64,000 nt of DNA from an uncultured delta proteobacterium (lineage in GTDB: Bacteria; Desulfobacterota; RBG-13-43-22). How positions within the stretch are numbered: the stretch's first letter is position 1; the number at the start of each line of letters is the position of its first letter. Shown piece after piece: positions 11,316 to 41,319 of this stretch. The stretch covers positions 1,312,001 to 1,376,000 of the forward strand of contig CAWBOS010000010.1 of NCBI GenBank assembly GCA_963790475.1. The letters run 5' to 3'. Below the pieces are notes generated by a model, which worked only from the letters and a program-made list of their open reading frames with translations, was not told where the DNA came from and made no database searches. The translations under genes were made by a program, and so were the position numbers.

Positions 11316-11344
11316 TTGACCCTCTCTTTTTCCTGTTTTATACT
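11316..11344 (+). promoter_or_regulatory. Strong sigma70 promoter at the head of the STAND array
   Basis: TTGACC(11316-21)-17 bp-TATACT(11339-44), AT-rich upstream. Confidence 0.65.
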
Positions 11345-11398
11345 CCCGCAACCCAAAACGATTAATTGCTGTTAACCAACTTTTGAGGAGTTGGCGAA

Positions 11399-11539
11399 AT
11401 GCAGTGTCCTAAGTGCCTGTTCGATAATCCCGAGGGGGCCAAGTTTTGTAATGCCTATGGGGACCCTTCCTCCCTCCCTATCTCCCCGTCTTGTTCCTTG
11501 CTTCAAATAACCCCCAACTCACGGAGAAGGGTTGTTTGA
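11399..11539 (+). pseudogene. 5' stub of a zinc-ribbon STAND gene
   Basis: GAGGAG RBS then MQCPKCLFDNPEGAKFCNAYG, matching the paralogue N-termini (MRCPACGHENLDGAKFCNECG), then unrelated sequence and a stop at codon 47. Confidence 0.75.
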
Positions 11540-11543
11540 AAAA

Positions 11544-12236
11544 ATGAAAATAAATCTCTTCGCCTCCATCATTCTCATCCTCATTTCCATTTTAATTCTA
11601 ATCATTCACCATATCACCCAGGCGGAATTTTTGCTTCACCTTGCCGCCATTCCTATCGAGGTCCTCGTGGCCGTTATCATCGTAGAGCAGTTTCTGGAAC
11701 ACAGAGAAAGTCAGGAAAAGCGCCGACAGATGATGTATATCAAGAGCTACATGTTCCGCTCCGAGATGCGTAATCTTTTTATTGCCGATTTCGCCGCCCT
11801 CAAGTCACCCCCGGTCACCTTTGAGAAGATCAGAAGGGCCTCCCTTCAGGAATTGAAGGAATTCAGGAAAAGCGCCAAGATCGTAGAGTATAAGTCTCCG
11901 GAGGCCATGGAGTCCGTAATACAGGAATATGTCAGGGCATTTCACGTCTGGCACAGTTTTTTGGAGCGAGCCATGAATTACGGTTTTGAGAACGTGTTCC
12001 AGGATATGATCTTTATCATCCACTTTATTCATACGGTTAAGAATTTTAAGGAAAAGAACCCGAATAAATTATTTATCGATGAGGCGGCCGGCAACGGGGT
12101 CCTTTTCGAGAGTTCGGTAAAGGTGTTGGGCGATGGTATTCGCTCTTTTCTCGATTACACCCTTGAGCTTAAGGAAAAGCAGCCGAAACTCTTTGACGAG
12201 GTGTTGTCGGACTATGAACGTCCATCAAGAGGATAA
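11544..12236 (+). CDS. Hypothetical membrane protein (2 N-terminal TM helices plus a soluble helical domain)
   Basis: ORF of about 230 aa with a hydrophobic N-terminus; no recognised motif. Confidence 0.65.
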   Translation: MKINLFASIILILISILILIIHHITQAEFLLHLAAIPIEVLVAVIIVEQFLEHRESQEKRRQMMYIKSYMFRSEMRNLFIADFAALKSPPVTFEKIRRASLQELKEFRKSAKIVEYKSPEAMESVIQEYVRAFHVWHSFLERAMNYGFENVFQDMIFIIHFIHTVKNFKEKNPNKLFIDEAAGNGVLFESSVKVLGDGIRSFLDYTLELKEKQPKLFDEVLSDYERPSRG

Positions 12237-12314
12237 AGCTGCTCAAGGTTTTCATATAAGACTTTGGTCTTGGCCTGAATTATTTTTACAAATCCGTAAA
12301 TATCAGGAGAAAAA

Positions 12315-15300
12315 ATGAGATGTCCGGCCTGCGGTCATGAGAATTTGGATGGTGCCAAATTTTGTAATGAATGCGGGGCAAAACTTGAGCTGGCCTGTCC
12401 CCGGTGCGGGAAGGTAAATCCCCCGGGAAGCAAATTCTGCTGTGAGTGTGGGCAACCCTTGTCTGCGCCTCAGGAATCACACCCGCCAAAAAGCCTTCCG
12501 GAGAAATGGCCCCAGCCCTACCCCTTTCCCTTGCCCAAAGAATTATCCGAGAAGATCCTGGCCCAGAAGGGCCGGATCGAAGGGGAGCGCCGGCAGGTCA
12601 CGGTCATGTTCTGCGACCTGGAGGGCTCCACCGCCCTGACCGAGAAGCTTGGGGACGAAAGGGCCTTTTCACTCATCGACGAAATCTTCGATATCTTAAC
12701 CCAGCAGGTCCACAGATATGAGGGGACGGTCCAGGAGTTCCGGGGAGACGGCATCATGGCCCTTTTCGGCGCCCCCATTGCTTTGGAAAATGCCGCCCAG
12801 CGGGCTATTCGCTCGGCCTTGGCCATCCACCAGGAGGTGACCAAGTTCGGCCACCAGATTCAGGAGGGAACCAGGGGGACGGGGATTCACATGCGGATCG
12901 GGATCCACACCGGCCCGGTCGTCCTGGGCACCATCGGCAGCGACCTGCGTCTGGAATTCCAAGTCATCGGCGATACGGTAAACCTCGCGGCCCGGATGGA
13001 AAGCCTGGCCGAGCCAGGAAGCACCTATGTGACGAATGATACCTTTAAGCTCACTGAAGGGCTCTTTCGCTTTGAAGGCCTGGGGGAAAAGCTGGTCAAG
13101 GGGAAAGAGACGCCGGTCCGGGTCTATCGGGTCATCGCTCCCAGCAGCCATAGCACGCGGTTCGATGTCAGCGCCGAGCAAGGCCTTACGCCATTCGTGG
13201 GCCGCCTGCGGGAAAGAGAGCTGTTACTGGATGCCTTTGAGCGGGCCCGTGATGGCCGAGGCCAAGCGGTCTCTATCGTTTCCGAGGCCGGGATGGGTAA
13301 ATCACGCCTGCTCTATGAGTTCCGGAAAGCCGTGCTCAACGAGGACATTACTTTTCTGGAAGGCAAATGCCTTTCCTTCAGCCGTGGCGTGGCCTATCAG
13401 CCCATTGCCGACATCCTCAAATCGAACTTCGATATCCGGGAGGATGACTGGGACCCGGCGATCAAAAATAAGGTCAAACAAGGCTTGCAGACCATCAAGA
13501 TGGGAGAAGGTCCTGCCCTGCCCTATCTTCTGGAGCTTCTCTCGGCCAAAGACAGCGGCATTGAAAAGATCCAACTCAGCCCCGAGGGGAAGAAGGATCG
13601 AACCATGGATACGCTCAAAAAAATTATACTGAAGGGCTCCGAAATGCGCCCACTGGTCATAGCCATCGAGGACCTCCATTGGATCGATAAAACTTCGGAA
13701 GACCTCCTGAAATATCTTTTGGGAAGCATCGCCGGGGCCAGGATACTCTTTATCCTCACCTACCGGCCCGAGTTTATTCCCACCTGGGGCCCCCGCTCTT
13801 ATCATAACCAACTTCTTCTTAACCGCCTCTCCAACCGGGAGAGTCTTCTCATGGCCCAGCACATCCTGGACACCAGGCAACTGGAAAGTGCTTTGGAAGA
13901 AGTGATCCTGGAAAAAACCGAAGGGGTCCCCTTCTTTGTCGAGGAGTTTATCAAATCCTTGAAGGACCTGGACATCATCGAGAAAAAAAATCAGACCTAC
14001 CGCATCACCAAGGAGCTTCAGACAGTCCGCATCCCTTCCACTATCCAGGACATCATCATGGCCAGGGTGGATGCCCTGCCCGAGGGGGCCAAGGAAGTGC
14101 TTCAGGTGGGCTCTCTCATCGAGCGTGAGTTCGCTTATAAGCTGATCAAGGCGGTTATGCACCTGCCCGAGGAGGAACTCCTCCGAAGGCTTTCAATTCT
14201 CAAAGATGCGGAACTGCTTTACGAGCGGGGCCTATTTCCTGATTCGACCTTCATCTTTAAACATGCCCTGACCCGGGAAGTGATCTACGGCACCCTCCTG
14301 GAGGGAAAGAAGAAAGAGATCCACGGAGAAATCGGTTGGGCAATCGAGGAATTATATAGTGATAATATAGATGAGTACTGCGGCCTATTAGCAGAGCATT
14401 ATAGGGCGAACGAAAATTATTTGAAAGCCTCGATTAATTACCAGACGGCTGCCAGAAAACCGGCCAGAGCCGTTTCATTTACCAATGCCGTTTCTTTGGC
14501 TGAGAAGGGGTTGATCTGTCTGGAGAAGCTGCCTCGGACAGACGAGGTAGGAAGGAAGATCGTCGATGCCAGGACAACGCTTGGACTTTATTTTATTCAG
14601 TTACAACACTTCGACACCGCCAAGAAAATCATCGACCCCGTGGTCGAACCGGCCTTAAAGCATGATTACCGGCGAAGACTTTCTCAAATTTATACGGTGC
14701 TTGGTATCCATAGTCATTTAATCGCGGAGGACTATCCCCAGGCTATTGAATATTTGGAAAAGGCCATAAAGATGGCCGAAGAGATGGATGATTTTGTTTC
14801 TTTGATATTTGCCCAACATTATTTAGGACATGTTTTCGCGGATAATTGCCTTTTCGACCAAGGCCTGTATTATATAGGAAAGGCCTTGAAGATCGTCGAA
14901 ACCTTTAACGTCCCCTGGAGTATAGCCATGCACAAGGCCTGTATCGCTTATACCATCTATTGTTCTCAGGGGAAAATCGGATTGGCCTATGAGACCGGCA
15001 GGGAGGCCTTATTATTGGCTGAAGAAAGCGGCGATATACTCTCAAAAGCCGAGGCCTATACCAACCATGGGGCCTGCTGTTTCTTTAAAGGATTCCTGGA
15101 GGAAGCGGAGGAGAATCTCTTAAAGGGGATTGATTTTAGTGCCAAAGCCCAATTATTTGGCCAAGGATTTGTGGCCCATTTATCTTTGGGAATGGTCCAT
15201 TCTCGCAATGGTAATTATGGAAAGGCCATAAACTATTTTGGGAAGGCCATCGAGTTTGAGAAATTCGGCACTCTCACCCCTTCCTATTTTAATTTGGCTC

Positions 15301-15680
15301 AGATAGCTCTTGTTTCAGCCAAGGTGATGAACCATGAGAAAGATATCGATTTAGAGCTTTTACCCGTCCATATGTCCCATAACAAAATTAAGAGATTTGA
15401 TAGCTTCTTTAGGAAACGTTTAAGCGAGATTTTTATAAACATTGATGGCGATCATTGGTCGGACGCTGAAAATTGGCTTAAGCAGGCCATTGAAATTGAC
15501 AAGAACAACGGGGTTATTTCTGAGTTGGGCCTGGATTATGTCCTTTACGCTGAATTATCCAGGCATAAAGGAGATCGTTCAAAGGCCAAAGAGCTTCTCG
15601 GAAAGGCCATAGAACTTTTTAAAGAATGCGAGGCCGACGGCTGGGAGAAGAAATATGAGAAGGAGATGGCCGAGATGTGA
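12315..15680 (+). CDS. STAND protein 1: double zinc ribbon + class III nucleotide cyclase + AAA/STAND ATPase + TPR
   Basis: 4 CxxC; VMFCD, EFRGDG, GDTVNLAAR; Walker A SEAGMGKS, Walker B IEDLHW, EGVPFF, FKHAL; TPR-like tail. Confidence 0.92.
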   Translation: MRCPACGHENLDGAKFCNECGAKLELACPRCGKVNPPGSKFCCECGQPLSAPQESHPPKSLPEKWPQPYPFPLPKELSEKILAQKGRIEGERRQVTVMFCDLEGSTALTEKLGDERAFSLIDEIFDILTQQVHRYEGTVQEFRGDGIMALFGAPIALENAAQRAIRSALAIHQEVTKFGHQIQEGTRGTGIHMRIGIHTGPVVLGTIGSDLRLEFQVIGDTVNLAARMESLAEPGSTYVTNDTFKLTEGLFRFEGLGEKLVKGKETPVRVYRVIAPSSHSTRFDVSAEQGLTPFVGRLRERELLLDAFERARDGRGQAVSIVSEAGMGKSRLLYEFRKAVLNEDITFLEGKCLSFSRGVAYQPIADILKSNFDIREDDWDPAIKNKVKQGLQTIKMGEGPALPYLLELLSAKDSGIEKIQLSPEGKKDRTMDTLKKIILKGSEMRPLVIAIEDLHWIDKTSEDLLKYLLGSIAGARILFILTYRPEFIPTWGPRSYHNQLLLNRLSNRESLLMAQHILDTRQLESALEEVILEKTEGVPFFVEEFIKSLKDLDIIEKKNQTYRITKELQTVRIPSTIQDIIMARVDALPEGAKEVLQVGSLIEREFAYKLIKAVMHLPEEELLRRLSILKDAELLYERGLFPDSTFIFKHALTREVIYGTLLEGKKKEIHGEIGWAIEELYSDNIDEYCGLLAEHYRANENYLKASINYQTAARKPARAVSFTNAVSLAEKGLICLEKLPRTDEVGRKIVDARTTLGLYFIQLQHFDTAKKIIDPVVEPALKHDYRRRLSQIYTVLGIHSHLIAEDYPQAIEYLEKAIKMAEEMDDFVSLIFAQHYLGHVFADNCLFDQGLYYIGKALKIVETFNVPWSIAMHKACIAYTIYCSQGKIGLAYETGREALLLAEESGDILSKAEAYTNHGACCFFKGFLEEAEENLLKGIDFSAKAQLFGQGFVAHLSLGMVHSRNGNYGKAINYFGKAIEFEKFGTLTPSYFNLAQIALVSAKVMNHEKDIDLELLPVHMSHNKIKRFDSFFRKRLSEIFINIDGDHWSDAENWLKQAIEIDKNNGVISELGLDYVLYAELSRHKGDRSKAKELLGKAIELFKECEADGWEKKYEKEMAEM

Positions 15681-15803
15681 TTACCTGTTTATGAGGTTAT
15701 AGGGGTTAATGCAAAAATCACACAACTACGTCTACTAAGGGAGCAAAAAAATAAACACCCCTTTCCTAAAGGGGGATAGCGATTGGACATATTTGCATCC
15801 GGA

Positions 15804-15832
15804 TTGACAATTTGGACAACTTAAGATAATCT
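15804..15832 (+). promoter_or_regulatory. Sigma70 promoter, probably giving a leaderless mRNA
   Basis: TTGACA(15804-09)-17 bp-TAATCT(15827-32); ATG starts 7 nt later with no SD. Confidence 0.5.
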
Positions 15833-15838
15833 CCGTCC

Positions 15839-17008
15839 ATGATCAAAAGAATTTTAGAAAAAAAGCTGGTGGCTCTCTCCGGGCAGTTCCCTGTCGTCAC
15901 CCTGACGGGACCACGACAATCGGGAAAGACAACCCTGGTACAGCAGGCATTTCCTGATTGGGAGTATGTCTCCCTGGAGGAGTTGGATAACCGTGAGTTT
16001 GCGGAGCAAGATCCGCGCGGGTTCCTTTCCACTTACTCTCAAAAAGTGTTGATTGATGAGGCCCAAAGGGTACCATCCCTTTTTTCCTATCTTCAAGGAG
16101 TGGTCGACCGGCTCAACCGACCGGGCCAGTACATCTTAACCGGCTCCCAGAATTTTTTGCTCCATGAAAGAATTTCCCAATCCTTAGCCGGCCGCACCGC
16201 CGTCCTGAAACTGCTTCCCCTGAGCCTGGAAGAGCTTCCTAAGGGGAGGACACCCGGCAAGAATTACTACGCCTTCCTTTTCCGGGGGTTTTATCCCCGG
16301 CTGTATGCCCAAACCGTTTCTCCCACCGATTGGTATAGGAGCTATGTTCAGACCTACCTGGAAAGGGATCTCCGCCTGATCAAGAACATCCCCGACTTGG
16401 GGCTGTTCCAAAAATTTGTGCGCCTTTGCGCCGGACGGGTCGGACAAGTGCTGAACCTGAGTTCCCTGGCCCAGGATACCGGCATCAGCCCCAATACCGC
16501 CCGGTCCTGGATCTCTTTATTGGAAAGCAGTTACCTGGTGTTTCTACTTCAGCCCCACTTCCGCAACTTTAACAAGCGCCTCATTAAAATGCCGAAACTC
16601 TATTTTTACGATCCCGGATTAGCCTGCTATCTCCTGGGAATCGAAACCCCGGAGCAGGTCAAAACGCATTTTCTGAAAGGAGCCCTTTTTGAGTCTCTGA
16701 TCATTTCGGAATTGATCAAGTATCGGGTTCATCGCGGCTTGGAAGCCAACTGTTATTATTGGAGGGACAAGGTCGGCCATGAAGTTGACTGCCTCCTTGA
16801 TTTCGGGGAACGGCTGGTCCCCTTGGAAATCAAATCCGGGGAAACCATCACCTCCGGCTTTTTTGAAGGGCTGAATTACTGGAATCGTCTGGCCAAGGCA
16901 GATCCCCGTCATGCCTTTCTGATTTATGCCGGTTCCAAGAAAGAAGAAAGAAGCCAGGGACGGGTTTTGAGCTGGGGTAAGATTCAGGATGTTTTTAATG
17001 TGGTTTAG
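15839..17008 (+). CDS. AAA+ ATPase with DUF4143 and a C-terminal PD-(D/E)xK-like motif
   Basis: GPRQSGKT, LIDEAQ, LTGS, SLAGR, PKLYFYDPGL, EVD...LEIKS. Confidence 0.9.
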   Translation: MIKRILEKKLVALSGQFPVVTLTGPRQSGKTTLVQQAFPDWEYVSLEELDNREFAEQDPRGFLSTYSQKVLIDEAQRVPSLFSYLQGVVDRLNRPGQYILTGSQNFLLHERISQSLAGRTAVLKLLPLSLEELPKGRTPGKNYYAFLFRGFYPRLYAQTVSPTDWYRSYVQTYLERDLRLIKNIPDLGLFQKFVRLCAGRVGQVLNLSSLAQDTGISPNTARSWISLLESSYLVFLLQPHFRNFNKRLIKMPKLYFYDPGLACYLLGIETPEQVKTHFLKGALFESLIISELIKYRVHRGLEANCYYWRDKVGHEVDCLLDFGERLVPLEIKSGETITSGFFEGLNYWNRLAKADPRHAFLIYAGSKKEERSQGRVLSWGKIQDVFNVV

Positions 17009-17025
17009 ACTCATGGAGAAAGTCG

Positions 17026-20000
17026 ATGAAATGTCTGAAATGCCATACGGAGAATCCTGAGACCAAAAAGTTTTGCACGGAGTGTGGAGCAAAGCTTTCA
17101 CTGATTTGCCCTCATTGTAAGGCAGAGGTCCTGCCGACAGAAAAATTTTGTGGTGAGTGCGGGCACCCTTTATCCGTTCCTCCCAAGACAACCCCCAAAC
17201 CACTCCCCTCTATTGATGAAAAGATTGCCAAAATCCAGCATTATCTTCCCAAGGATCTGGCTGACAAAATCTTACTGCAGCGGGAGCGGATCGAGGGGGA
17301 GCGCAAGCAAGTGACGGTGCTGTTCACCGACATGGTGGGCTCCACCTCCATGTCGGAGAAACTCGATCCCGAAGAGTCCTTCGGCCTGATGGAACAGGTT
17401 TATGAGATCCTCATCCGAACGGTCAATGAGTACGGGGGAACGGTGAACGAGCTGACCGGCGACGGGGTCATGGCCCTCTTCGGCGCCCCCATCGCCCTGG
17501 AGGACGCGCCCCAGCGGGCTATCCGGGCCAGCCTGAGCATCCACCGGGAGCTGGTCCAGTTCAACGAAAAGATGCGCCGAGAGAAAGCCGGTCTGCCCTT
17601 GCTGCGGATGCGGGCCGGGATCAACACCGGACCGGTGGTGATGGGCACCCTGGGTAATGACCTGCGGGTCGATTTCAAGGTCGCCGGCGATACGGTCAAT
17701 CTGGCCTCTCGTATGGAAGGCCTGGCCGAGCCCGGCACCACGTATGTTACCGCTGAGACCTTCAAACTCACCGAGGGGTTCTTTCGCTTTGAAGGATTAG
17801 GGAAGAAAGAAATCAAAGGCAAGGCCGAGCCCATCGAGGTCTTTCGGGTCATTGCCCCCAGCAACCGCAGGACCCGCTTTGATGTGAACGCCGAACAGGG
17901 ACTGACCCCATTCATAGGTCGTCAGCGCGAACTCGAACTTTTGCTCGATGTTTACACCCGGGCCAAAAGCGGCCGGGGCCAGGCCATTTCCATCGTGGCC
18001 GACGCCGGCATGGGCAAGAGCCGGCTGCTCTACGAGTTTCGCAAAGCCCTGGCCAATGAGGAGGTGAACTTTCTGGAAGGCAAATGCCTCTCTTACAGCC
18101 GGGGAGTGGCCTATCACCCGGTGATCGACCTGCTGAAAGGGCAGTTTGACCTCCGGGAAAACGACGGCGACTTTGAGGTGCGGGACAAGGTCAAACGAAA
18201 CCTGAAACTCCTGCAAATTGACGAAATCACCACCCTGCCCTATTTTCTTGAGCTTCTTTCGGTCAAAGACAGCGGCCTGGACCGAATTTCTTTAAGCCCG
18301 GAAGGCAAGAGAGACCAGACCCTTCAGGCCCTGACCCGCTTCGTTCTCAAGGGGGCCGAGATCCAGCCTCTGATCCTGGCCGTGGAAGACCTTCACTGGA
18401 TCGACCGGAGCTCCGAAGAGGTCTTGAAAGACCTCCTGGAACACATTGCCGGGGCCAGGGTATTGCTGATCTTCACCTACCGGACCGAGTACGTCCACAC
18501 CTGGGGGTCCCGCTCCTTTCACAGCCAGGTCACCTTAAACCGGCTCTCCAACCGGGAAGCATTGGCCATGGTCTCTCATCTTTTAGCCACGGAAAGCGTG
18601 GCCGAGAACCTTCAGGACCTCATCTTGGAGAAGACCGAAGGGGTTCCCTTCTTTATCGAAGAGTTTTTGAAGTCCCTCAAGGACCTCCAGGTCATCCGCC
18701 GGCAAGACACGGTTTACGCCCTGACCAAAGACCCCAAAGACGTTACCATCCCTTCCACCATCCAGGACGTGATTATGGCCAGGGTCGATGCCCTGCCCGA
18801 AGGGGCTAAAGAGCTCTTGCAGACAGGGTCGGTCATCGAGCGCGAGTTTTCCCATGAACTTATTCAAAAGGTAACCAAACTCTCTGAATCGGACCTCCTG
18901 ACCCATCTCTCGGCCCTTAAGGATGCCGAGCTCCTCTACGAGCGGGGGGTGTACCCGAACTCCACTTACATCTTTAAACATGCCCTGACCCGAGAGGTGG
19001 TTTATGACTCGATCCTGACCAGAAGGCGCAAGGAAATTCATGCCACCGTGGCCGAGGCCATGGAGCAAATTTATCAACCCAACCTTGATGAACACCTGGG
19101 CACCCTTTGCCATCACTTTATGACCGGGGATAACTACGAGAAAGGCGAGACCTACGCCAGGCTGGCCGTTCAAAAGGCGCAGAAGGCCGGCTCATTGCCG
19201 GATGCCATCAATCAATCCAAGAAAAGAATCGCCTGTCTTGAGAAATTGCCTCTGGCCGAAGAGGTTCAAAGAAAAATAATAGACGCCCGGACAATTATGG
19301 CCCTCCGCCTGATTGAACTCAATCATTTTATTGAAGCCAAAGAAGCTATTGACCCGATTATCGACCTTGTCAAAAAGCTGAATTATAAAAAGCGTCTTGG
19401 CCAGGTGATAACCATTATTGGATCATATCAATCTAGTGTGGAAGAAAATTTCCCGGCAGCCTTTCAATCTTTCGAAAAGGCCTTAACTCTTTCGCAGGAA
19501 GCAAATGACATCGTAACTTCAGTTTTTTTAAATTATTGGCATGGAGTAACTTTGGCCAACAACTGCGAATTTGAAAAGGCCACCGGCCTCATGCAAAAGG
19601 CCGTTGACATAAATGTGGCAGCCAAAAATTTATGGGGGATCGCATCCACTCAAGCCACTTTTGCCTATTTATGTTTTTTCTTGTCCGGAAGGATAGATTT
19701 GGGATTCCGGACCTCGGCCGAAGCCGTTCAAATAGCTGAAGAGAGCGGAGATGGTTATTCCAAAGGTGTAGCTTATGCTTGCCACGGCGTTTCCTGCTTT
19801 GGGCGGGGATTATTCGAAGAAGCAGAAAAGTATTTTTTAAAAGGCATCGCCTTTTGTGAAAGGGTCAATCAACCGACTTTTAACTTGCTCGAACATTGTT
19901 ATTTGGGTGAGATCAATTTTGAAAAAGGAAATTTTTTAAAATCAGAAGAATGGTATAGGAAGCATACCAGATTGTGAAAGAGGGCCGCATATTTCCTTCT

Positions 20001-20396
20001 TTCTTGGGTTGGGGAAAATCAAGATTGCTGAAGACAAAGAGTATGATCGATCCAAAGAATATCGACCTGGAATCTCTTTATGTCTATTCTAAAAATAATA
20101 AAATCAAAGCCTACCAAGGTTTGATTTCCATTGATATCGGGGCCATTCTAATGAATCTGGATGGATGTCTGCCCGAAGCCGAAATTTGGATTCAAAAGGC
20201 CATTGAGGAAGACCAAAGAAACGGCACGCGGTTTTTTTTAGGAAGAGACTACGCCCTTTACGCCGAATGGTTCAAACGAAAGGGCGATCGATCCCAGACC
20301 CGGGAAAACCTGGGGAGAGCCATAGAAATTTTAAAAGAGTGCGGCGCCGATGGCTGGGTGGAAAAATATGAGAAGGAGCTAACCGCACTGCAATAG
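17026..20396 (+). CDS. STAND protein 2: DZR + cyclase + ATPase + TPR, split by a 1 bp frameshift near 19961 (ORFs 17026-19977 and 19974-20396)
   Basis: Same motifs (VLFTD, ELTGDG, ADAGMGKS, VEDLHW); restoring one G gives EWYRKAYQIVKEGRIF and joins the ORF ending ADGWVEKYEKELTALQ like the paralogues. Confidence 0.88.
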
Positions 20397-28912: not shown

Positions 28913-28945
28913 GTTGGATATTGGACGATTCGAAATGGGAATAAA

Positions 28946-29164: not shown

Positions 29165-29165
29165 G

Positions 29166-29653: not shown

Positions 29654-30112
29654 ATGCTCGATTTAAAATCTGAATTCATTTGTGAAGTTGTCGGGGATTT
29701 GGGGGAACCGCAACAAATCGGTCTGACACCCCATGGTGCCCGCATGATATTGCCGGTGATCGGTGGCACCGTGAAAGGACCGGAAATAAACGGGGAGGCG
29801 CTGTCCTTTGGAGCGGACTGGCTTCTCTTCCGGTCCGATGGTGTAGGCGAGGTGGACGTTCGCGTCACCATGCGCACCGACGATGGCGAACTCATTTATG
29901 CCTCTTATAGAGGAATATTGAAAGTCGATCCGGGGATTATGGCCCGTATTCAAAACGGCGAGGACATCGATCCCTCGGAGTATTATTTTCGTACCACCCC
30001 GGTATTTGAGACCGGCTCTGAAAAATACAACTGGCTGAATCAGATCGTCTGCGTCGGGGTGGGGAAAATCGAACCAAAGCGCGTGCGCTATAAAATTTAT
30101 CAGATACTTTAA
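29654..30112 (+). CDS. DUF3237 (UPF0311) family protein
   Basis: GGTVKGP, GADW, TDDGELIY, YYFRTTPVFETGSEKYNWLN. Confidence 0.88.
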   Translation: MLDLKSEFICEVVGDLGEPQQIGLTPHGARMILPVIGGTVKGPEINGEALSFGADWLLFRSDGVGEVDVRVTMRTDDGELIYASYRGILKVDPGIMARIQNGEDIDPSEYYFRTTPVFETGSEKYNWLNQIVCVGVGKIEPKRVRYKIYQIL

Positions 30113-31205: not shown

Positions 31206-31222
31206 CCATAATTGCTTAACGA

Positions 31223-34200: not shown

Positions 34201-34636
34201 ATCTTTCGGTGCTGCGCTCGGGCGGCCCACCATGGCCGAAATCCTGTTGATGAAGGGATCCCTTGAAGAGGCCTTAAAGATGTCGGAAGAGGCGAATGCT
34301 GAAGCCGAAAAAGCCGGAACAAACCTCAACCTGATACCGGGCCTTGAATTGTCAATCCGCATCCTCCTCGGCCTGAACAGGCCGGCTGAGGCCCTAACCG
34401 TGGCTGATGAAGCACGCCAAAAAGCCGAGCAAAGCGGTTATCGACCGCTGCTCTGGCGCATCTTAATCGGGCGAGGCCAGGCCCGGAAAAGGCTGGGAGA
34501 TGAACAGGGCGGGACTGAAGATTATCTGGCCGCGGCCAGGATTTTAAATGAGCTTATGGAGACCATCCCCAACGCAAAACTGCGGCGGGATTTTGAGACC
34601 AATCCGCTCGTAGCACCGATTTTGGCGGAGAAGTAG
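31223..34636 (+). CDS. STAND protein 5: class III cyclase + STAND ATPase + TPR (no zinc ribbon)
   Basis: LFIIDLVGST, FKDTGDG, RIGLHTG; GEAGIGKT, FEDLHWAD, EGNPFF, FTHEQ. Confidence 0.9.
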   Translation: MIGENSDMPADEKNIPEGTITLFIIDLVGSTGLNQSLGDEVYATVERGIKKIAFELISTNNGIVFKDTGDGLMAAFRSARKAVGCAREFQRSVAQRNRTQGGAPIRLRIGLHTGEVLAENGDFRGETVIITKRIEEVTPPGAIYASETVHGVLGTTRTELEDRGEFELKGITAPWRLYEVPWVEMEAGRVLPHNEPTPFVGRSMEFSHLLELVERTKKSSGSMVFIGGEAGIGKTRLTEETAREARRLDLLVLTGHCLEMENAPPYLPVIEHIEQAARIISPETLRKTLGDNAPEVAKLVPELRRRFQDIPDPVALPPEQEQHFLIHGVCQYIERAAQVKPLLLIFEDLHWADESTLLLLDHLAKRLPEIGVLVIGTYRHTEVKPGSPLATALPNLLRQRLAEEILLKRCTEEQVSALLKARAGNSPPQELVSLFCYETEGNPFFVEELFRHLHETGKLFDDEGRFKSLASIPDTEVPRSVRLLISRRLQGVSKACQGVLTNSACLGGNFDFNLISRLTDLDDDALLSALDEAVEANILRDISSGREARYNFTHEQIRQTLLAEISTPRRQRLHYNIANTMEQFYGEDVEKYCSEIAHHFYQAGALADGSRTARYLLLAGERARAASAFDEAIKMFDSAETVLPSGDSAALAGIYYSRGMALRGLGRMEKALTAFQHSIDRLPPGKVQDQSIQARANLLLDLYRGHEAVRDLEKLLSRARETGDKAQEMESLLDLGRACYIISLNEPEGGERVLKCYEQAYRIAKDMGNKTGMVRALLPTQHLVDYWLDFRERAKANVEEAAGLAKEIKKEELICDCTQARFRFLSPKAVNTMTAALLEKIKALRDPLRLKEYYFYLMWHYLRLGAFDRSVEACDAGIKLADELGAKPVQYNTIKTLALINLGRYRKAWDALQEEVTEESFGFAMQQYGMTFYLMDLFSFRQAAEQAQRTSELAKKLNRAWMRRGVQNIRVLSLARLGTLDDSTLGEIQQDLRSFGAALGRPTMAEILLMKGSLEEALKMSEEANAEAEKAGTNLNLIPGLELSIRILLGLNRPAEALTVADEARQKAEQSGYRPLLWRILIGRGQARKRLGDEQGGTEDYLAAARILNELMETIPNAKLRRDFETNPLVAPILAEK

Positions 34637-34830: not shown

Positions 34831-36033
34831 ATGAATAATTCACCAACACTTTGTTACGGCACGCCGGAGGAGGCGGGAATGCTTCCTGAGCGTATCGAAA
34901 GAGTCAAACGGCTGGGCGCGGGCTGGGTAGCTGACGGTCATACCCCATCCTTGGTTATACTGGCAGCCAGGAAAGGTATCATTTTCTTACATGAAGCTTA
35001 TGGCGTTCTAACCCCTGAGGCGGGTTCGCCGCCACTCCGGCTCGACTCCATCTTCCCCCTCTCATCCCTCACCAAACCGGTTACGGCCACCGCGGTCATG
35101 ATCCTGGTAGAGGACGGCCTGCTGGGCCTGAACCGCCCTCTCGTCGATTATATCCCTGAAATCTGTGGTGAGGGCACAGAAGAGGTCCTGGTCCATCACC
35201 TGCTCACCCATACCTCCGGTTACAACGGTGAGGCCTTACTTGCCTTTATGATCGAAAGAAGAGGAAAATGGCCGGAGTTTCCGCCTTGTCCTGAAAACCA
35301 ACACCCTTTAATCCATGAACTCCTCCATCGTCAATACCCGGCGCCACTCCATAAAACGCCAGGGGTGGAGATGTCTTATTGTGACCATAATTATCTTTTG
35401 CTGGGGGAGATCGTCCGACGGGTGAGCGGCTCTTCTCTGGCCGATTTTGCCGCGGAGAGGATCTTTCAGCCCCTCGGCATGAGCGACACCTATTACATTA
35501 TCCCCCAATCTCTGGAGGCAAGAATTGTCAAGCGGCTGGCGGATGCGCCTTATGCCAAACGCGAAAGCCGTTTCTACGAAGGTCTGAATTCGCGTCAAAT
35601 CCAGGAGACGCCTTATGGACACGCCGGTGTCTTCTCCACGGTCATGGATATGGCCGTTTTCGGTCAGATGTTCCTTAATGGCGGCCGGTATGGAGATAAG
35701 CGCATCTTAAGCCGGCCAACCGTCTCGGAGATGACCCGGAATCAGATCTCGGGTATCGGCCTTGATTGGTTTGGGACCTTTATACCCGAGGCCTCCTGGG
35801 GTTATGGCTGGGGAGTGACTGGCAATACAAAATGGAAGTACTTTCGGGGAAGTCTGAATCCATCAAAATCATTCGGGCACCCGGGCGCCGGGGGGGCCGG
35901 TTTATTTGTAGACCCCGTGCAGCAAATCGTACTCGCTTACTTTACAGTTACGCTCGAAGCCACACCGCGGTTAGAGCAGAAAACCGACTTTGACCTGTTT
36001 GAGAATTTGATCTACTCCTCTATGAATGAATAG
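34831..36033 (+). CDS. Serine hydrolase, beta-lactamase family
   Basis: SLTK, LLTHTSG, IFQPLGMSDT, FGHPG. Confidence 0.9.
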   Translation: MNNSPTLCYGTPEEAGMLPERIERVKRLGAGWVADGHTPSLVILAARKGIIFLHEAYGVLTPEAGSPPLRLDSIFPLSSLTKPVTATAVMILVEDGLLGLNRPLVDYIPEICGEGTEEVLVHHLLTHTSGYNGEALLAFMIERRGKWPEFPPCPENQHPLIHELLHRQYPAPLHKTPGVEMSYCDHNYLLLGEIVRRVSGSSLADFAAERIFQPLGMSDTYYIIPQSLEARIVKRLADAPYAKRESRFYEGLNSRQIQETPYGHAGVFSTVMDMAVFGQMFLNGGRYGDKRILSRPTVSEMTRNQISGIGLDWFGTFIPEASWGYGWGVTGNTKWKYFRGSLNPSKSFGHPGAGGAGLFVDPVQQIVLAYFTVTLEATPRLEQKTDFDLFENLIYSSMNE

Positions 36034-36130: not shown

Positions 36131-37666
36131 ATGCAAGACTATCCGTGGTGGAATGAGACCCAAAAAAAGCTGATGCGGGATGTCCAAATGTTTACCAACG
36201 ATGTTCTCCTTCCCCTGGGAGAAAAATGCGTTTATAAAAAGGAATACCCTTGGGAAGCCATGCGGGAAATCGGAAAAAAGGGTTGGCTCGGAGCGACGAT
36301 TCCCCAGAAATATGGGGGTCATCAAGAGGAGTGGGGTGTAACCGGGGCTTGCATTCTTTTGGAAGAAATCAGTCGGGCCGGAGTATTATCCTCTGGTTAT
36401 TCTACAACACTGATCGGGGCCACACATCAAATTGTTCATGACGGCACCGAAGAGCAGAAACAGAGATGGTTACCCAGGATTGCCAAAGGAGAGCTTCAAG
36501 GTTGTATCACCATGACCGAACCCTATGCCGGTTCGGATATAGCGTCCATAGAAACTACCGGCGTCCAGGAAGGGGATTTCCACCTGGTGAATGGAATAAA
36601 AAGGTTCCAGACGAATGCGGCTGCGGCCGATCTTTACATGACCTATGTAAAGACCACCAAAGACCCGAAAGAGATCAGAAGTTACCATCACCTGACGGGG
36701 ATGATTATTGAAAAAGGGACGCCGGGATTCAAAGTTGAGCGGGTAAACGATTGGATGGGCAGCAGCGGAATGTACAACTGTTACCTGCGGTTTGACAACG
36801 CTAAAGTGCCCGTCGGTAACGTGATTGGAGGGCAAGGGAACGGCTGGCGGGTGATGATGAGTGGATTGAATATCGAGCGCGCCATCGGCGCCGCCGGCAA
36901 TTTGGGCCAAATGAGAGAGGCGATGCGCTACGCCAAGCAGCACCTGGAAAGACGCGTCCAGTTTGGGCAAACGACCGGTTCCATAACGACCAACCAATTC
37001 AAGCTGGCGGATATGTATTCCAAATTTCAACTGGCCCGCCTTTTGATCTATTATACGGCTTACTGCGCTGATTTGGGACGGGAAGTTCCCATTGAAGCAG
37101 GTTTAGCCAAGCTTTATGGTTCCGAAGTAGCCCTTGAGATTGCTTTGGATGCCATCCAGTGCATGGGCGGGAACGGAGCCATGCAGATTTATCCCGTGGA
37201 ACGATATATGCGGGATGCCAAACTTGGGCAGATCGCGGCCGGGACAAGTGAAGTGCTAAGGCTTTTGATCTACCGGATGGGAAATCGATATTTTGCCGAG
37301 GATTTAAAAGCCCCGGTGCGTATGATCGATGATGAATTAAAAATGCCTTTGCCCATAGGGAAGCTTCCTCCCCCGCAGAAAGTAAGAGAGGAAATGGATG
37401 TTTTAAAGGTTCTGGCCGAGAACTATCGAGTGAATCCCGGCCTGCACATGACCCTTTCCGACATCAAGCAATTCTTAGATGCCCCGGATGAGGCTTTGCT
37501 GAAATATTTGGCTTCTTTGGAAGAGAAAGAAATGGTTTCCCAGTTAAAAAATAAAAAAGGCGAGGTGGAATTGGTCAAGGCGACTTTAACGGGTATCAAA
37601 GAAGCCAATCCTCCGGATTATTATCGGCATATCCCTTCCTGGGTATTGCCCAAGGATGTTTTTTAA
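36131..37666 (+). CDS. Acyl-CoA dehydrogenase with an approximately 120 aa C-terminal extension
   Basis: MTEPYAGSD, NGIKRF, LNIER, RVQFG, AIQCMGGNG, ERYMRDAK..IAAGTSE. Confidence 0.9.
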   Translation: MQDYPWWNETQKKLMRDVQMFTNDVLLPLGEKCVYKKEYPWEAMREIGKKGWLGATIPQKYGGHQEEWGVTGACILLEEISRAGVLSSGYSTTLIGATHQIVHDGTEEQKQRWLPRIAKGELQGCITMTEPYAGSDIASIETTGVQEGDFHLVNGIKRFQTNAAAADLYMTYVKTTKDPKEIRSYHHLTGMIIEKGTPGFKVERVNDWMGSSGMYNCYLRFDNAKVPVGNVIGGQGNGWRVMMSGLNIERAIGAAGNLGQMREAMRYAKQHLERRVQFGQTTGSITTNQFKLADMYSKFQLARLLIYYTAYCADLGREVPIEAGLAKLYGSEVALEIALDAIQCMGGNGAMQIYPVERYMRDAKLGQIAAGTSEVLRLLIYRMGNRYFAEDLKAPVRMIDDELKMPLPIGKLPPPQKVREEMDVLKVLAENYRVNPGLHMTLSDIKQFLDAPDEALLKYLASLEEKEMVSQLKNKKGEVELVKATLTGIKEANPPDYYRHIPSWVLPKDVF

Positions 37667-37829: not shown

Positions 37830-40800
37830 ATGAAATGCCCGAAATGCCGTACTGAAAATCCAGAATTGAGGAAGTTCTGCAAGGAGTGCGGAACAAAGCT
37901 TTTATTGGTCTGTCCTAATTGTCATTTTGAAAATGCTCCCGGAGATAAATTCTGCGGCGAGTGCGGTCATGATCTTAGCCAACCTAAAGAAGCCTCCCCG
38001 CTGGATTACTCCGCCCCCCAATCCTACACCCCCAGGCATCTGGCGGAAAAGATCTTGACCCATCGTAGTGACCTTGAGGGAGAGCGGAAGATCGTCACCG
38101 TCATGTTCGCCGACGTAGCGGGCTTTACGTCCCTCTCAGAAAAGCTGGACCCTGAGGAAGTTCACCGGATCATGGACGGCTGCTGTCGTATCCTGGTCGA
38201 TGAAATCCACCGCTGCGAGGGAACGGTCGGCGAATTCCGGGGTGACGGGGTGATGGCCCTGTTTGGCGCGCCCATTGCCCACGAAGATCATGCCCAGCGG
38301 GCCTGTCATGCCGCCTTGGCCATTCAACAGGCCCTGGTCCCTTATGGCCGGGAAATCCAGCGAAGATACGGGATGGATTTTAAAATACGCATGGGCCTCA
38401 ACTCCGGCATGGTGGTGGTGGGGAGTATCGGGGATGATCTGCGGATGGATTACACGGCCATGGGTGATACCACCAATCTGGCCGCCCGGATGGAAACCAG
38501 TGCTCGGCCCGGCGGCGTACTGGTGTCCAATAACATTTACCGGCAGACCAAAGAGTTCTTTGAATTCTCTTCCTCCGAATCCTTACAGGTCAAGGGAAAA
38601 CAAGAGCCGGTCGAGGCCTACCAACTCTTGAGACCCAGCCAGGTGCACACCAGGATCGCCGCTTCCACGGCCAAAGGTCTTACCAGGTTTATGGGCCGCA
38701 GCCGGGAGATGGAAACCCTTTCCGAGGCCTTCGAAAAGGTTGGGTCCGGAGAAGGCCAGGTGGTCGGCATCGTCGGCGAGGCCGGGGTGGGTAAATCGAG
38801 ACTGCTGCTGGAGTTCCGCCATCTTCTCCCGAAAGGCTACTGGTATTTTGAAGGTCAATGCCTGCACTACGGCGGGGCCATGCCCTATTTGCCCATGCTC
38901 GATGTTCTGCGGTCCTTCCTGGATGTCAAAGAAGGGGAACAGGAACATGTAGTCCGGCAGAAGCTGAAAGAGAGGATCCTGGGGCTGGATGAAAATCTCC
39001 GACCCATCATCCCGCCCATCCAGGAACTCCTGTCTCTCCAGGTCGATGATCAAGCCTACGCCAGGCTGGAGCCGAAACAAAAGAGAGAAAAAACCTTTGA
39101 GGCCATCCGCGACCTGTTGATCCGGGGCAGCCAGGATCGGCCCCTGATCCTGACCATTGAAGACCTGCATTGGATCGATAAGACCAGCGAAGAATTTCTA
39201 AGCTATATGATCGGCTGGCTGCCGAGGACCCGCATCCTCCTCCTGCTCCTCTATCGTCCTGAATACACCCATCAGTGGGGAAACAAATCCTATTACCAGA
39301 GGATCGGTCTGGAACAGCTCACTACCAACACCAGTGCCGAGCTGGTGGGAGCGATCCTGGATGGAGACGTGGTGCCCGAGCTGCGGGATTTGATCCTGAC
39401 CCGGGCTGCCGGAAACCCGCTATTCATGGAGGAACTGACTTATAACTTATTGGACAACGGCACCATTCAAAAAAAAGATAATCATTTTATCCTGGCCCAA
39501 GACGTCTCCCGTCTCCAGGTCCCGGACACCATCCAGGGGATCATAGCCGCCCGCATGGACCGTTTGGAAGAAAGTCTCAAACGAATCATGCAGGTGGCGG
39601 CGGTGATCGGCCGGGAGTTCGCCTTCCGCATCCTGGAAACCATCCTGGAAATGAAAGAGGGGCTTAAGTCCGGGCTGGTCAACTTACAGGGGTTGGAATT
39701 CATCTACGAAAAAAATCTCTTCCCCGAGATGGAGTATATCTTCAGACACGCCCTGGTGCAGGAGGTAGCCTACAACAGCTTGCTGATCGCCCGCCGGAAG
39801 GAAATTCATGAGAAGATCGGCCAGGCCATTGAAGAGCTTTATCCGAAAAGGCTGGAAGAATTCTACGAGATGCTGGCCTATCATTATTCCCGGAGCGATA
39901 ACCATGATAGGGCCTGTCGCTTTCTGAAGTTGTCGGGAATCAAGTCCATTCGAAATCATTCACTTTGGGAGGCCTTTCGATTTTTCCAGGAAGCCCTAAG
40001 CTTCCTCAAAAAGATGCCGCAAACCGAAGGAAACAAAAGGGAGCAGGTTGAGGTCATTTTATTAATGGCCGTCCCGACGAGACTCCTGGCCTATCCGGAA
40101 AATTCCTTCGAATTCCTTCGGGAGGGTGAAAGGCTGGTCAAAGGTCAAGGGATCGGAGATGGAAAAAACAGGGCATCTTTAAACTACTTCACGGGCATGT
40201 ATTATTCGGTTAAGGGAAATCATCTGCTGGCCAGAAAATATCAGGAAGATTCTTTTGCCGATGCCGAAAAATTACAGGATATTGAAATCATGGCCCCTGT
40301 GACCCATGGCCTCTGCGTTGCTTATCTCATGGAAGGAGAACATGAAAAAATAGTAAACAAAGCGCCCAGAACCATCGCCTTGCTGGAAAAAACTCACCGG
40401 GAATCCGATTTTTTTAGGTCAACCGCCAATATCTATGCGATGCTCCAAGCCCATTATGGGGAGAGCCTGGCATGTTTAGGGGAGTTCAGGGCTGCAGAGC
40501 CCATATGTGAAAAAGCACTTTCTTTTGCCCAGGGGCTCAACCATTTTTTTACCATTGCCATGGTTGAAAGTCTATTTGGGGCTTTATTCATGGTGAAGGG
40601 AGATGGGGAAAAGGCTGTGAAACATTTCCAAGGCGAAATAGAATATCTTGAAAAATCGCAAACGGCACTCTATTTGCCTTTGGCTTGGGGTTCCCTCGGA
40701 CACGGATATTATTTGGTCGGTGAGCTTACCAGTGCCTTAAAATGCACGGAAAAGGCTTTTAAGATGCAGCAAGACATCGGAATACCCTTTTTTTTGTCCT

Positions 40801-41198
40801 GGTTTCATTTGACCCTAAGTATGATTCATGGCGATTCAGGCAAGTTGGAAGAGGCCAGGGTCCAGGCCGAGCAGGGACTGAACTTAGCCCAAACGACCCA
40901 TGAAGAAATGAATGAAGGGATATTATGGCTTGCTCTGGGCAGGGCCATTGGAAAACTGGAGAAGGTCCAATTTGATATGGCGGAAGAGTATATCCATAAG
41001 GGAATGAAGATTTTGGATGAACTGAAGATCAAACCCTCTTTTTCCATTGGTCCTCTCTACCTCGGAGAGCTTTATGCCGATGCCGGTCAGAAAGAAAAAG
41101 CCCTGGAAAACCTGGAAAAGGCCGAGACCATGTTTCGGGAGATGGGCATGGATTATTGGCTGGCCAAGGCGCAGGAGGCACTGGCCCTACTCACCTAA
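37830..41198 (+). CDS. STAND protein 6: DZR + class III cyclase + STAND ATPase + TPR
   Basis: 4 CxxC; VMFAD, EFRGDG, DYTAMGDTTNLAAR; GEAGVGKS, IEDLHW, AGNPLF, FRHAL. Confidence 0.92.
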   Translation: MKCPKCRTENPELRKFCKECGTKLLLVCPNCHFENAPGDKFCGECGHDLSQPKEASPLDYSAPQSYTPRHLAEKILTHRSDLEGERKIVTVMFADVAGFTSLSEKLDPEEVHRIMDGCCRILVDEIHRCEGTVGEFRGDGVMALFGAPIAHEDHAQRACHAALAIQQALVPYGREIQRRYGMDFKIRMGLNSGMVVVGSIGDDLRMDYTAMGDTTNLAARMETSARPGGVLVSNNIYRQTKEFFEFSSSESLQVKGKQEPVEAYQLLRPSQVHTRIAASTAKGLTRFMGRSREMETLSEAFEKVGSGEGQVVGIVGEAGVGKSRLLLEFRHLLPKGYWYFEGQCLHYGGAMPYLPMLDVLRSFLDVKEGEQEHVVRQKLKERILGLDENLRPIIPPIQELLSLQVDDQAYARLEPKQKREKTFEAIRDLLIRGSQDRPLILTIEDLHWIDKTSEEFLSYMIGWLPRTRILLLLLYRPEYTHQWGNKSYYQRIGLEQLTTNTSAELVGAILDGDVVPELRDLILTRAAGNPLFMEELTYNLLDNGTIQKKDNHFILAQDVSRLQVPDTIQGIIAARMDRLEESLKRIMQVAAVIGREFAFRILETILEMKEGLKSGLVNLQGLEFIYEKNLFPEMEYIFRHALVQEVAYNSLLIARRKEIHEKIGQAIEELYPKRLEEFYEMLAYHYSRSDNHDRACRFLKLSGIKSIRNHSLWEAFRFFQEALSFLKKMPQTEGNKREQVEVILLMAVPTRLLAYPENSFEFLREGERLVKGQGIGDGKNRASLNYFTGMYYSVKGNHLLARKYQEDSFADAEKLQDIEIMAPVTHGLCVAYLMEGEHEKIVNKAPRTIALLEKTHRESDFFRSTANIYAMLQAHYGESLACLGEFRAAEPICEKALSFAQGLNHFFTIAMVESLFGALFMVKGDGEKAVKHFQGEIEYLEKSQTALYLPLAWGSLGHGYYLVGELTSALKCTEKAFKMQQDIGIPFFLSWFHLTLSMIHGDSGKLEEARVQAEQGLNLAQTTHEEMNEGILWLALGRAIGKLEKVQFDMAEEYIHKGMKILDELKIKPSFSIGPLYLGELYADAGQKEKALENLEKAETMFREMGMDYWLAKAQEALALLT

Positions 41199-41209
41199 TG
41201 CATCGAGCA

Positions 41210-41319
41210 ATGTTTCAGCGCAGTCGCAAAGTACATCGAGAGAATCATTCTGTCCCGCCCAGTGAGAGGAGGGATAGAAGTTCTTCTTCGCGTTCTTGGC
41301 GCCTTTGCGGTGAAAACAT
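41210..41319. repeat. Twin-hairpin-family element, copy C (single hairpin)
   Basis: atgtttcagcgca...tgcggtgaaaacat ends; shares agtcgcaaag with copy B, gagaatcatt with copy A, and a TGAGAGG loop. Confidence 0.6.

Follow-up and report, generated by a model that had tools for sequence, protein, structure and literature searches.

A variable island of six STAND genes with cyclase or kinase outputs, probably ligand-gated signalling sensors, in an uncultured delta proteobacterium

The stretch of DNA considered here comprises 64,000 nucleotides of the genome of an uncultured delta proteobacterium (GTDB lineage Bacteria; Desulfobacterota; RBG-13-43-22), namely positions 1,312,001 to 1,376,000 of contig CAWBOS010000010.1 in assembly GCA_963790475.1, and the whole of it is referred to below as the window. 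Within it, six genes on the plus strand (g1, g2, g3, g4k, g5 and g6; positions 12315-41198) encode proteins that, by open reading frame (ORF) calls and Pfam, are built to a shared plan: a double zinc ribbon (DZR), then a class III cyclase or a Ser/Thr kinase, then an AAA_16 nucleotide-binding oligomerisation domain (NOD) of the signal transduction ATPases with numerous domains (STAND), and last a TPR tail. An earlier sequence-only reading had described six co-oriented genes with a STAND ATPase core and a TPR tail, five of them with a cyclase, one with a kinase and five with a zinc ribbon, and ORF calls and Pfam agree with it on every one of these counts. The genome of the window is called G000, and it was compared with 13 further genomes of the genus, all metagenome-assembled, so that absences among them are soft.

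Table 1. Positions of the genes and other features of the island, in window coordinates.
Feature	Position	Strand	Description
g1	12315-15680	+	intact, 1121 aa; DZR 43.6 bits, Guanylate_cyc 97.9 bits, AAA_16 87.7 bits, TPR
g2	17026-20396	+	DZR-cyclase-NOD-TPR in two frames: 17026-19977 (983 aa) and 19974-20396 (140 aa)
g3	20429-23790	+	DZR-cyclase-NOD-TPR in two frames: 20429-22714 (761 aa) and 22561-23790 (409 aa)
g4k	25091-28912	+	intact, 1273 aa; DZR, Pkinase 162.4 bits, AAA_16 103.1 bits, TPR
g5	31223-34636	+	1137 aa; without DZR; weak/degenerate Guanylate_cyc 41.8 bits, AAA_16 98.7 bits, TPR
g6	37830-41198	+	intact, 1122 aa; DZR-cyclase-NOD-TPR of subfamily B
g1/g3 recombination or conversion tract	g1 12465-13200; partner g3 20579-21315	+	linker and cyclase domain
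Variable segment (island)	11140-41330		30.2 kb, between the convergent w10581 and the MogA-like gene (w41331)
Best sigma-70-like promoter match	11316-11344	+	TTGACC-17-TATACT; inverted twin at 29534-29506
Conserved hypothetical protein	11532-12236	+	234 aa, all-helical, membrane-anchored; precedes g1; AF2 pLDDT 93.0
AAA_14 + DUF4143 ATPase	15839-17008	+	between g1 and g2; Pfam; PADLOC candidate family PDC-S01, E 5.5e-102
HicB	23850-24194	-	Pfam HicB 1.3e-16; toxin-antitoxin pair with HicA
HicA	24191-24463	-	Pfam HicA_toxin 2e-10
Two dispersed intergenic repeat elements	24520-24770; 24843-25066		about 240 bp and 100-220 bp; partial copy in 41198-41331, at the right border
DUF3237 gene	29654-30112	+	Pfam
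DUF4386 gene	30352-31005	+	Pfam
Beta-lactamase-family serine hydrolase	34831-36033	+	Pfam; no PADLOC match
Acyl-CoA dehydrogenase	36131-37666	+	Pfam; no PADLOC match

The DZR stands at the N-terminus of every protein but g5 (40.6-49.9 bits), Guanylate_cyc is matched at 88-98 bits in g1, g2, g3 and g6 and less strongly in g5 (cut-off 21.9), AAA_16 is matched in six of six at 80.6-103.1 bits (cut-off 32.6), and the Pkinase match of g4k compares with a cut-off of 31.7. TPR models, including TPR_12 and TPR_MalT, match all six genes, in g3 on the detached piece, and TPR_MalT exceeds its cut-off of 45 in g6 with 58.8 bits. Each of the six carries either a kinase or a cyclase and none joins the two in one chain, and a Pfam scan at E<=0.01 found no helix-turn-helix (HTH) family in any of them. 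The size of about 1120-1270 codons given earlier fits g1, g4k, g5 and g6 (1121-1273 aa) but not g2 and g3, which are frame-split as assembled, and the two additional gene stubs are most simply read as the C-terminal ends that the frame changes cut off from g2 and g3, since family searches gave no further fragments in the window. The region had also been described as a 30 kb array from 11316 to 41319; its six genes do lie together, but they are not contiguous, as ten unrelated genes are interspersed. Both ends correspond to real features, the best promoter-like match starting at 11316 and 41319 lying just before a convergent MogA-like gene.

The nature of the central module was addressed with an AlphaFold2 (AF2) model of residues 280-740 of g1, built from an 85-row alignment, with a predicted local distance difference test score (pLDDT) of 88.9 and a predicted TM-score (pTM) of 0.86. 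Foldseek placed Apaf-1 at the top (3shf, E 6.7e-11, TMq 0.58), together with the TPR-STAND protein PH0952 (6mfv, E 5.1e-10), MalT (8bob_C, E 2.6e-9, TMq 0.60, TMt 0.66), CED-4, Avs3, ZAR1 and NOD2, the top matches ranging from E 6.7e-11 to 1.9e-7. Searches of PDB sequences with g1, with a full-length profile and with a NOD-only profile returned cyclase and TPR chains only and no STAND chain. [quoted passage not shown]

The catalytic motifs are largely in place. All six NODs carry Walker A (GxGKS/T) and Walker B (hhhhED), and g3 departs next to Walker B, with EDLQRMD against the near-invariant EDLHW. The cyclases of g1, g2, g3 and g6 keep the two metal-binding Asp residues, the Arg and the Asn/Arg pair at the presumed class III catalytic positions, and the best solved relatives of the cyclase domain are CyaB (3r5g) and Cya2 (2w01). 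The translation of g4k carries the kinase catalytic motifs HRDIKPGN and DFG.

The modules that make up these proteins do not share one history. The cyclases of g1 and g3 are 93% identical, those of g1 and C15 (a paralogue elsewhere in G000) 74%, and those of g1 and C13a (another such paralogue) 64%; the order is different for the NOD, with 85% for g1/C13a, 65% for g1/g3 and 30% for g1/C15. The TPR is the most divergent domain among the paralogues, at 10-45% identity for most pairs and 63-65% for g6/C13b; that of g1 is 26% identical to C13a and about 60% to proteins of other organisms, and g1 and P0007, a protein of another organism, are 62% identical in TPR1 and 67% in the NOD. That the TPRs differ between paralogues and are kept in orthologue-like proteins elsewhere fits distinct, conserved ligands. 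Separate maximum-likelihood trees of the domains, with 16-17 rows made up of the genome's own copies and six external proteins picked from 120 listed matches, were not congruent: the cyclase tree unites g1, g3, C15 and P0002 (an external protein; support 100/100), the NOD tree g1, P0002 and C13a (100/100), and the TPR tree g1 and P0002 with external proteins (100/99). In approximately unbiased (AU) tests, for which clades were named from the other domains' trees, each domain's clade was rejected on the data of the other domains (p 8.3e-5 to 2.9e-49, with one weaker case at p 0.013).

At the nucleotide level the g1/g3 tract of Table 1 has 698 of 758 aligned bases identical (92.1%), including a 180-nt identical run, and the adjoining NOD is 63.7% identical. 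Chimeras were also found in other genomes, with a g2-like cyclase (81%) joined to a g1-like NOD (73%) in G004 and a subfamily-A NOD joined to a subfamily-B TPR in metagenome loci. The incongruent trees and the tract together indicate that modules move between paralogues, so that the earlier description of the outputs as interchangeable holds on an evolutionary scale. This exchange of outputs is real but ancient, the g1/g3 tract being the only recent event seen. The NOD of g4k groups with that of g5 (support 100/99) at 36% identity, on long branches that call for caution, and is 24-28% identical to the other cyclase copies, from which g4k would seem to be an old lineage and not a fresh output swap.

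The same comparisons bear on the age of the cluster. NOD identity among the window copies is 26-65%, the nearest NODs to that of g1 are P0002 (89%, in another organism) and C13a (85%, on another contig of G000), and the closest copies to g6 within the genome are C13b and X. Since the window NODs are so far apart and g1 has its closest kin on another contig and in other organisms, the six paralogues are old and did not arise by recent local duplication. This divides the earlier picture of a birth-and-death receptor cluster: turnover in copy number, with no one-to-one array in the congeners, agrees with it, but the lack of recent local duplication does not.

The paralogues stand in a variable segment, the borders of which are given in Table 1. 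Its flanks (w9294 and w10581 on the left, the MogA-like w41331 and EF-G on the right) were traced through the other 13 genomes available for the genus. Both lie on one contig in three of them (G004, G010 and G011), where they are adjacent or 1.2 kb apart and the island is absent in all three; in G004 the site of window 11140-41330 holds about 54 bp. In four further congeners a contig end adjoins MogA, and in four others MogA stands beside another conserved block (thioredoxin-reductase-like, hydrolase, RND efflux), with a MNT/HepT pair in one case (G003). The island is a variable insertion, and the varied gene content beside MogA marks the junction as a rearrangement-prone site. As for marks of a mobile element, there was no tRNA, no flanking direct repeat and no Rfam family, and the scanned ORFs included neither an integrase nor a transposase. 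A side observation concerns the left border gene w10581 (10581-11111), which encodes a Cys-rich protein of 176 aa, is found in 4 of the 13 congeners and has no Pfam, NCBIfam or PADLOC match.

The family to which the six belong is very large. For the cyclase type 7997 candidates were scored and at least 7545 relatives reached E<=1e-20, the best 120 being about 1120 aa long, of the same architecture and 56-81% identical; for the kinase type the figure is at least 5648 at E<=1e-20 among 8000 scored, the best 120 again with the same architecture, and three kinase-type members share one public contig. The source annotations are generic, such as 'class 3 adenylate cyclase/TPR repeat protein', 'AAA family ATPase' or 'protein kinase'. 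Among 14 congeners the number of NOD-profile matches per genome runs from 0 (G002, G005 and G006) to 14; the comparison across relatives shows no fixed one-to-one array, and arrays elsewhere are composed differently. A metagenome sample of 74 loci (584 kb) was also assembled, of which 32 were informative in showing at least 3.5 kb beside a family gene; a scan of genome contigs with a single protein gave only nine loci. A second family gene is present in 11 of the 32 informative loci, and tandem genes occur also in G004, G009 and G010. As an observation in its own right, a kinase-only array of five kinase-type STAND genes occupies 35 kb in G010 (G010:C23:258416-293315; frames of 1280-1297 aa, one with an internal TGA).

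G000 (6.34 Mb) has 10 matches to cNMP_binding, the domain that binds cyclic mononucleotides (cNMPs), and 18 cyclase-domain matches. All ten of the former lie elsewhere in the genome and none in the window, where the sequence-only reading, too, had seen no cNMP-binding effector gene. One of them, a cNMP_binding-rhodanese gene, lies 1.2 kb upstream of C15; the other four family loci of G000 have metabolic or housekeeping neighbours and no specific PADLOC match. Among 226 neighbours in the metagenome loci, taken in two batches (150 + 76), cNMP_binding was the commonest family in the first (7/150), and in the second it fell outside the 25 families reported as most frequent. A hidden Markov model (HMM) built for the purpose found eight cNMP-binding ORFs in the 584 kb, against 10 in the 6.34 Mb of G000, which gives a crude Poisson p of about 6e-6 on a single-genome baseline and with loci that are not independent. 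Five of the eight are small stand-alone proteins (143-163 aa, in four loci), and the others are a Crp-type regulator, a sigma-54 activator and a patatin with a double cNMP-binding domain. The small proteins are 63-88% identical among themselves and adjoin STAND-cyclase genes in L038 (2328-2804, 6455-6946), L040 (320-754), L046 (3237-3668) and L067 (660-1091), L038 having one twice, in a repeated unit of reader and cyclase; no close orthologue of this small family was found in G000. These linked genes indicate that a cyclic nucleotide is the signal. In locus L043, near a STAND-cyclase pair and a cNMP-binding sigma-54 activator, a Band_7/SPFH protein was noticed (14435-15559) whose C-terminus is a double zinc ribbon, and the same zinc-ribbon module thus occurs on an unrelated neighbour.

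Another explanation is that proteins of this kind regulate ribosomally synthesised and post-translationally modified peptides (RiPPs) or other secondary metabolites, like TIGR03903, the 'TOMM system kinase/cyclase fusion protein', the copies in the island being orphan regulators. Among NCBIfam models TIGR03903 scores highest on five of the six proteins (190.5-369.5 bits) and comes second on g4k (277.7, after a PknB-type kinase model), and TIGR04510, a peptide-modification-system cyclase, gives weak matches; all TIGR03903 scores are, however, far below the cut-off of 705.75, which none of the 17 matches in the genome exceeds, and no window protein joins kinase and cyclase. C15 stands beside two radical SAM genes, one with SPASM, and a MauE/DoxX gene, and Radical_SAM and B12-binding each account for 3 of the 150 first-batch neighbours in the metagenome loci, but most neighbours elsewhere are unrelated to RiPPs and no precursor-peptide or maturase gene was found in the window. 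As a general account of the family this is improbable. For C15 by itself (G000:C15:30753-40726, equivalent to L014 4753-14726), where the MauE/DoxX gene lies upstream and the radical SAM genes downstream, the locus may be a peptide-modification cluster under cNMP control.

Whether the genes are alive at all has to be asked in view of the interrupted frames. g2 shifts frame once near 19976 and g3 once near 22612-22620, each by a net -1, and both shifts are compatible with 1-nt indels. Elsewhere in G000, C13a and C13b form an intact tandem and C15 is intact; X is in two pieces and Y, which has in-frame stops, in three, while C10:914052-914624 holds a TPR-only relic. Y and the relic look truly decayed. 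In total, 4 of 11 family loci in the genome are frame-split. A baseline was drawn from ORFs of at least 250 aa of congener loci L001-L013 with a match of at least 60% identity in G000: these hit 33 different genes, of which 23 are whole, 4 partial and 6, including g2, frame-split, so that 5 of 32 unrelated genes are split. The rate is about 0.15 per kb for unrelated genes against about 0.135 per kb for family genes, and since unrelated genes split at an equal or higher rate, the frame breaks are uninformative and were ruled out as evidence of gene death. Short contigs at about 3x depth from a public run (X1, 34% of sampled words) match parts of g2 and g3 exactly; they leave 19761-20011 uncovered, bridge no gene junction and list no indel, and contain one joint, with a 20-nt side. 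g2 and g3 are possibly intact, apparent pseudogenes here not being separable from assembly indels. Two of the five split unrelated genes lie in the window, outside the array (49415-50387 and 50583-51585), and have intact ORFs in 4 and 5 congener loci (317-374 and 334-340 aa); these, with the three elsewhere in the genome, point to frequent indel errors or to widespread gene decay.

An explanation by which the array is a graveyard of decaying, functionless copies, or an artefact in which scattered paralogues were mis-joined, has to be set against these figures. The interrupted frames of g2, g3, X and Y, the TPR-only relic, the deviating Walker B region of g3, the degenerate cyclase of g5 and a listed contamination of 9.68% for the genome would all suit it, but background genes are equally frame-split, four of the six genes are intact ORFs with intact motifs, and tandem family genes recur in independent assemblies (the metagenome loci, G004, G009 and G010). 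A mis-join is unlikely on this contig of 2.02 Mb because the window paralogues are less than 77% identical in DNA outside one 736-nt tract. Of the explanations considered, this one is the least credible, and very improbable.

What the evidence favours, with moderate confidence, is that the proteins are ligand-gated, oligomerising signalling sensors, and with the same moderate confidence the locus can be described as a strain-variable island that has gathered six old paralogues, all cytoplasmic one-component sensors from a very large family. At rest such a protein would be closed, nucleotide-bound and autoinhibited. Binding of a ligand to its own TPR sensor would lead to nucleotide exchange and to oligomerisation through the NOD, by which the N-terminal output domains would be brought together; cyclase domains could then form the head-to-tail dimers required for catalysis and make a cyclic mononucleotide, and kinase domains could trans-activate. 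Different TPR sensors would in this way feed different inputs into a shared cNMP pool, or into phosphorylation, and the cNMP would be read by cNMP-binding proteins encoded elsewhere in G000. Over evolutionary time, homologous recombination among paralogues would re-assort the zinc-ribbon, output, switch and sensor modules. This anatomy agrees with the accepted logic of STAND proteins, in which the repeat sensor sets a nucleotide-gated switch free to oligomerise and to activate, by proximity, an effector at the N-terminus, and a cyclase that requires dimerisation and a kinase that activates in trans would be natural outputs of a STAND oligomer. Ligand, oligomerisation, product and physiological role are the parts of this model that we infer; as to the role, metabolic, environmental or peptide signalling is most likely.

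Several points weigh against this reading. The pairs that specify the substrate are non-canonical, being Glu/Gln in g1 and g3, Glu/Lys in g2 and Glu/Thr in g6, and since these fit neither Lys/Asp (adenylate type) nor Glu/Cys (guanylate type), the rule given in PMC1262709, the cyclic product is not predictable from the motifs, although membership of class III does not depend on the substrate pair. The g5 cyclase is probably inactive, because Ile replaces the transition-state Asn and the segment before it, at the second substrate position, is deleted. g2 and g3 may be broken genes, no cNMP reader was found within the window with the cNMP_binding HMM, and the enrichment of readers elsewhere carries the limits of its baseline and sampling noted above. 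A search of the literature brought up cyclase-STAND fusions in in-silico work only and no experiment on a zinc-ribbon-cyclase-AAA_16-TPR protein, though subscription journals and closed supplements may hold more. The remaining points concern immunity. A STAND-cyclase pair in L035 is flanked on both sides by WD40-caspase genes (931-3420 and 10723-13167), a three-gene array in L075 adjoins a 2xcNMP-binding-NTE-patatin phospholipase (14051-16300), the island itself holds HicAB and the PDC-S01 candidate, and a 2026 preprint (10.64898/2026.08.12.744502) assigns cNMP cyclases joined to STAND modules to a predicted 'immune clade'.

These last observations support the idea of an immune or conflict locus, in which the TPRs would sense proteins of phages or other invaders as Avs proteins do, cNMP or phosphorylation would set off effectors acting in trans that arrest or kill the cell, and recombination would diversify recognition. 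Published predictions include cyclase-NLR 'all-in-one' proteins and an immune clade of STAND-fused cyclases (10.1101/2020.01.06.895854; PMC7159879; 10.64898/2026.08.12.744502). The STAND fold is common to Avs3, ZAR1 and NOD2, the insertion is variable and the cargo at its junction differs among relatives, the family content varies widely among the congeners, and modules are shuffled. The cyclase domains match the PycC models of Pycsar (65-98 bits), but no better than they match the generic Pfam cyclase model. With PADLOC-DB, which dates from 2023, the family genes of the window matched only in their cyclase (PycC models, 29-98 bits) or kinase (PD-T4-6, mad6) domains and no model matched the NOD or TPR parts. 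Apart from the candidate family PDC-S01, the window offers nothing that ties the array to immunity, which the sequence-only reading had named beside metabolite sensing as a possible role. There is no effector with a cNMP-binding domain in the window, the four other family loci of G000 have the neighbours described above, the commonest linked readers are the small stand-alone cNMP-binding protein and transcription regulators, and the sensors are about 60% identical across distant organisms.

An immune role of this kind is accordingly rated as unlikely, if still the strongest of the competing explanations. Somewhat less likely again is its most far-reaching form, in which the island would be a prokaryotic counterpart of the NLR resistance-gene clusters of plants and animals, recombination making new pairs of recognition and response against invaders and cNMP effectors, such as the L075 patatin, acting in trans. 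Ordinary signalling by ligand-gated sensors is favoured because each paralogue has a sensor of its own that is nevertheless conserved in other organisms, most of the linked readers are regulators and the contexts within G000 are metabolic.

Further observations concern the interspersed genes and elements of the island. The 234-aa protein encoded ahead of g1 has no Pfam match, no PDB fold match of its AF2 model and no informative match in the Atlas; it has 131 homologues, including records from anammox bacteria, Chloroflexota and Aminicenantes. A 78%-identical homologue of it is followed by two STAND-cyclase genes in G004 (G004:C38; L021 is the same contig and was counted once), at a place different from the island junction, so that this candidate partner or effector is linked to STAND genes in only two genomes, G000 and G004. 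The order of a family gene, an AAA_14/DUF4143 gene and a second family gene recurs in metagenome locus L034, and in G009 a 91%-identical HicB adjoins a g3-like gene. The dispersed repeats have dozens of copies, 72-87% identical, on most G000 contigs and no Rfam match; they could be MITE-like elements (miniature inverted-repeat transposable elements), REP-like elements (repetitive extragenic palindromes) or a small RNA family. The best promoter match forms part of a 37-nt element present at 11309-11345 (+) and 29505-29541 (-), an inverted pair 18 kb apart with about 15 other sites in the genome; the minus-strand copy faces a low-GC stretch (28912-29500) in which no minus-strand ORF of at least 100 aa is listed. 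Hydrolase or acyl-CoA genes were seen near several family loci.

The wider interest lies in the thousands of zinc ribbon-cyclase/kinase-STAND-TPR proteins that stand in public data under generic annotations. The locus is a compact natural experiment, with six sensors on one chassis and two kinds of output. Two questions become testable with it: do NLR-like switches in bacteria work through induced proximity to drive cyclic-nucleotide signalling, and are arrays of this kind there for signalling or for immunity? Ordinary signalling, if that is what they do, would still give a very large family a mechanism. Fusions of cyclases and of kinases with STAND modules are prior knowledge (Mclx in PMC4452763, TIGR03903 and the published predictions); the present analysis adds formal evidence that paralogues exchange modules, finds that tandem arrays recur and that family genes are linked to a small cNMP-binding family, and cautions that the apparent pseudogenes may be errors of assembly.

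The array proteins can be set beside several known systems. MalT and PH0952 likewise have a P-loop NOD followed by a TPR-like sensor, but the output of MalT is a C-terminal LuxR DNA-binding domain, whereas the array proteins have an N-terminal enzyme and a double zinc ribbon and lack an HTH. PknK-type proteins share with g4k a Ser/Thr kinase followed by a MalT-like ATPase and repeat region, to which g4k adds the N-terminal double zinc ribbon, the comparison being one of descriptions. The M. tuberculosis protein with kinase and MalT-like parts is presumably PknK. It is listed as 'Kinase + MalT-like ...' in PMC1262709. The Mclx proteins (Rv0386, Rv1358 and Rv2488c) also join an N-terminal class III cyclase to a STAND-type ATPase and, in PMC4452763, some are described with non-canonical substrate residues or degenerate cyclases, frameshifted copies being common; compared by shared domains only, they differ in having a LuxR HTH end and no double zinc ribbon, and in being almost exclusive to Mycobacterium. 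TIGR03903 is a curated full-length model that spans cyclase, NOD and TPR, or kinase and NOD, but its members have kinase and cyclase in one chain, where the array proteins have one only, score below the cut-off and have no TOMM (thiazole/oxazole-modified microcin) genes nearby. Pycsar and Pucsar have the class III cyclase in common with the array proteins; in those systems a second gene, next to that of the cyclase, encodes a cNMP-binding TIR or transmembrane effector, and no such effector was found in the window by cNMP_binding or the PADLOC effector models. For its immune clade the 2026 preprint names NACHT and AP-ATPase fusions (10.64898/2026.08.12.744502), and the AAA_16/DZR type of the array may or may not belong there. 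Avs and bNACHT proteins, finally, share the logic of effector, NOD and repeats, and Avs3 (8dgc) matches the fold at E 1.2e-8, but with a low global TM-score (TMq 0.34) and with no PADLOC Avs/NLR model matching the array proteins; their outputs are a nuclease, a protease or the like, and those of the array are a cyclase or a kinase.

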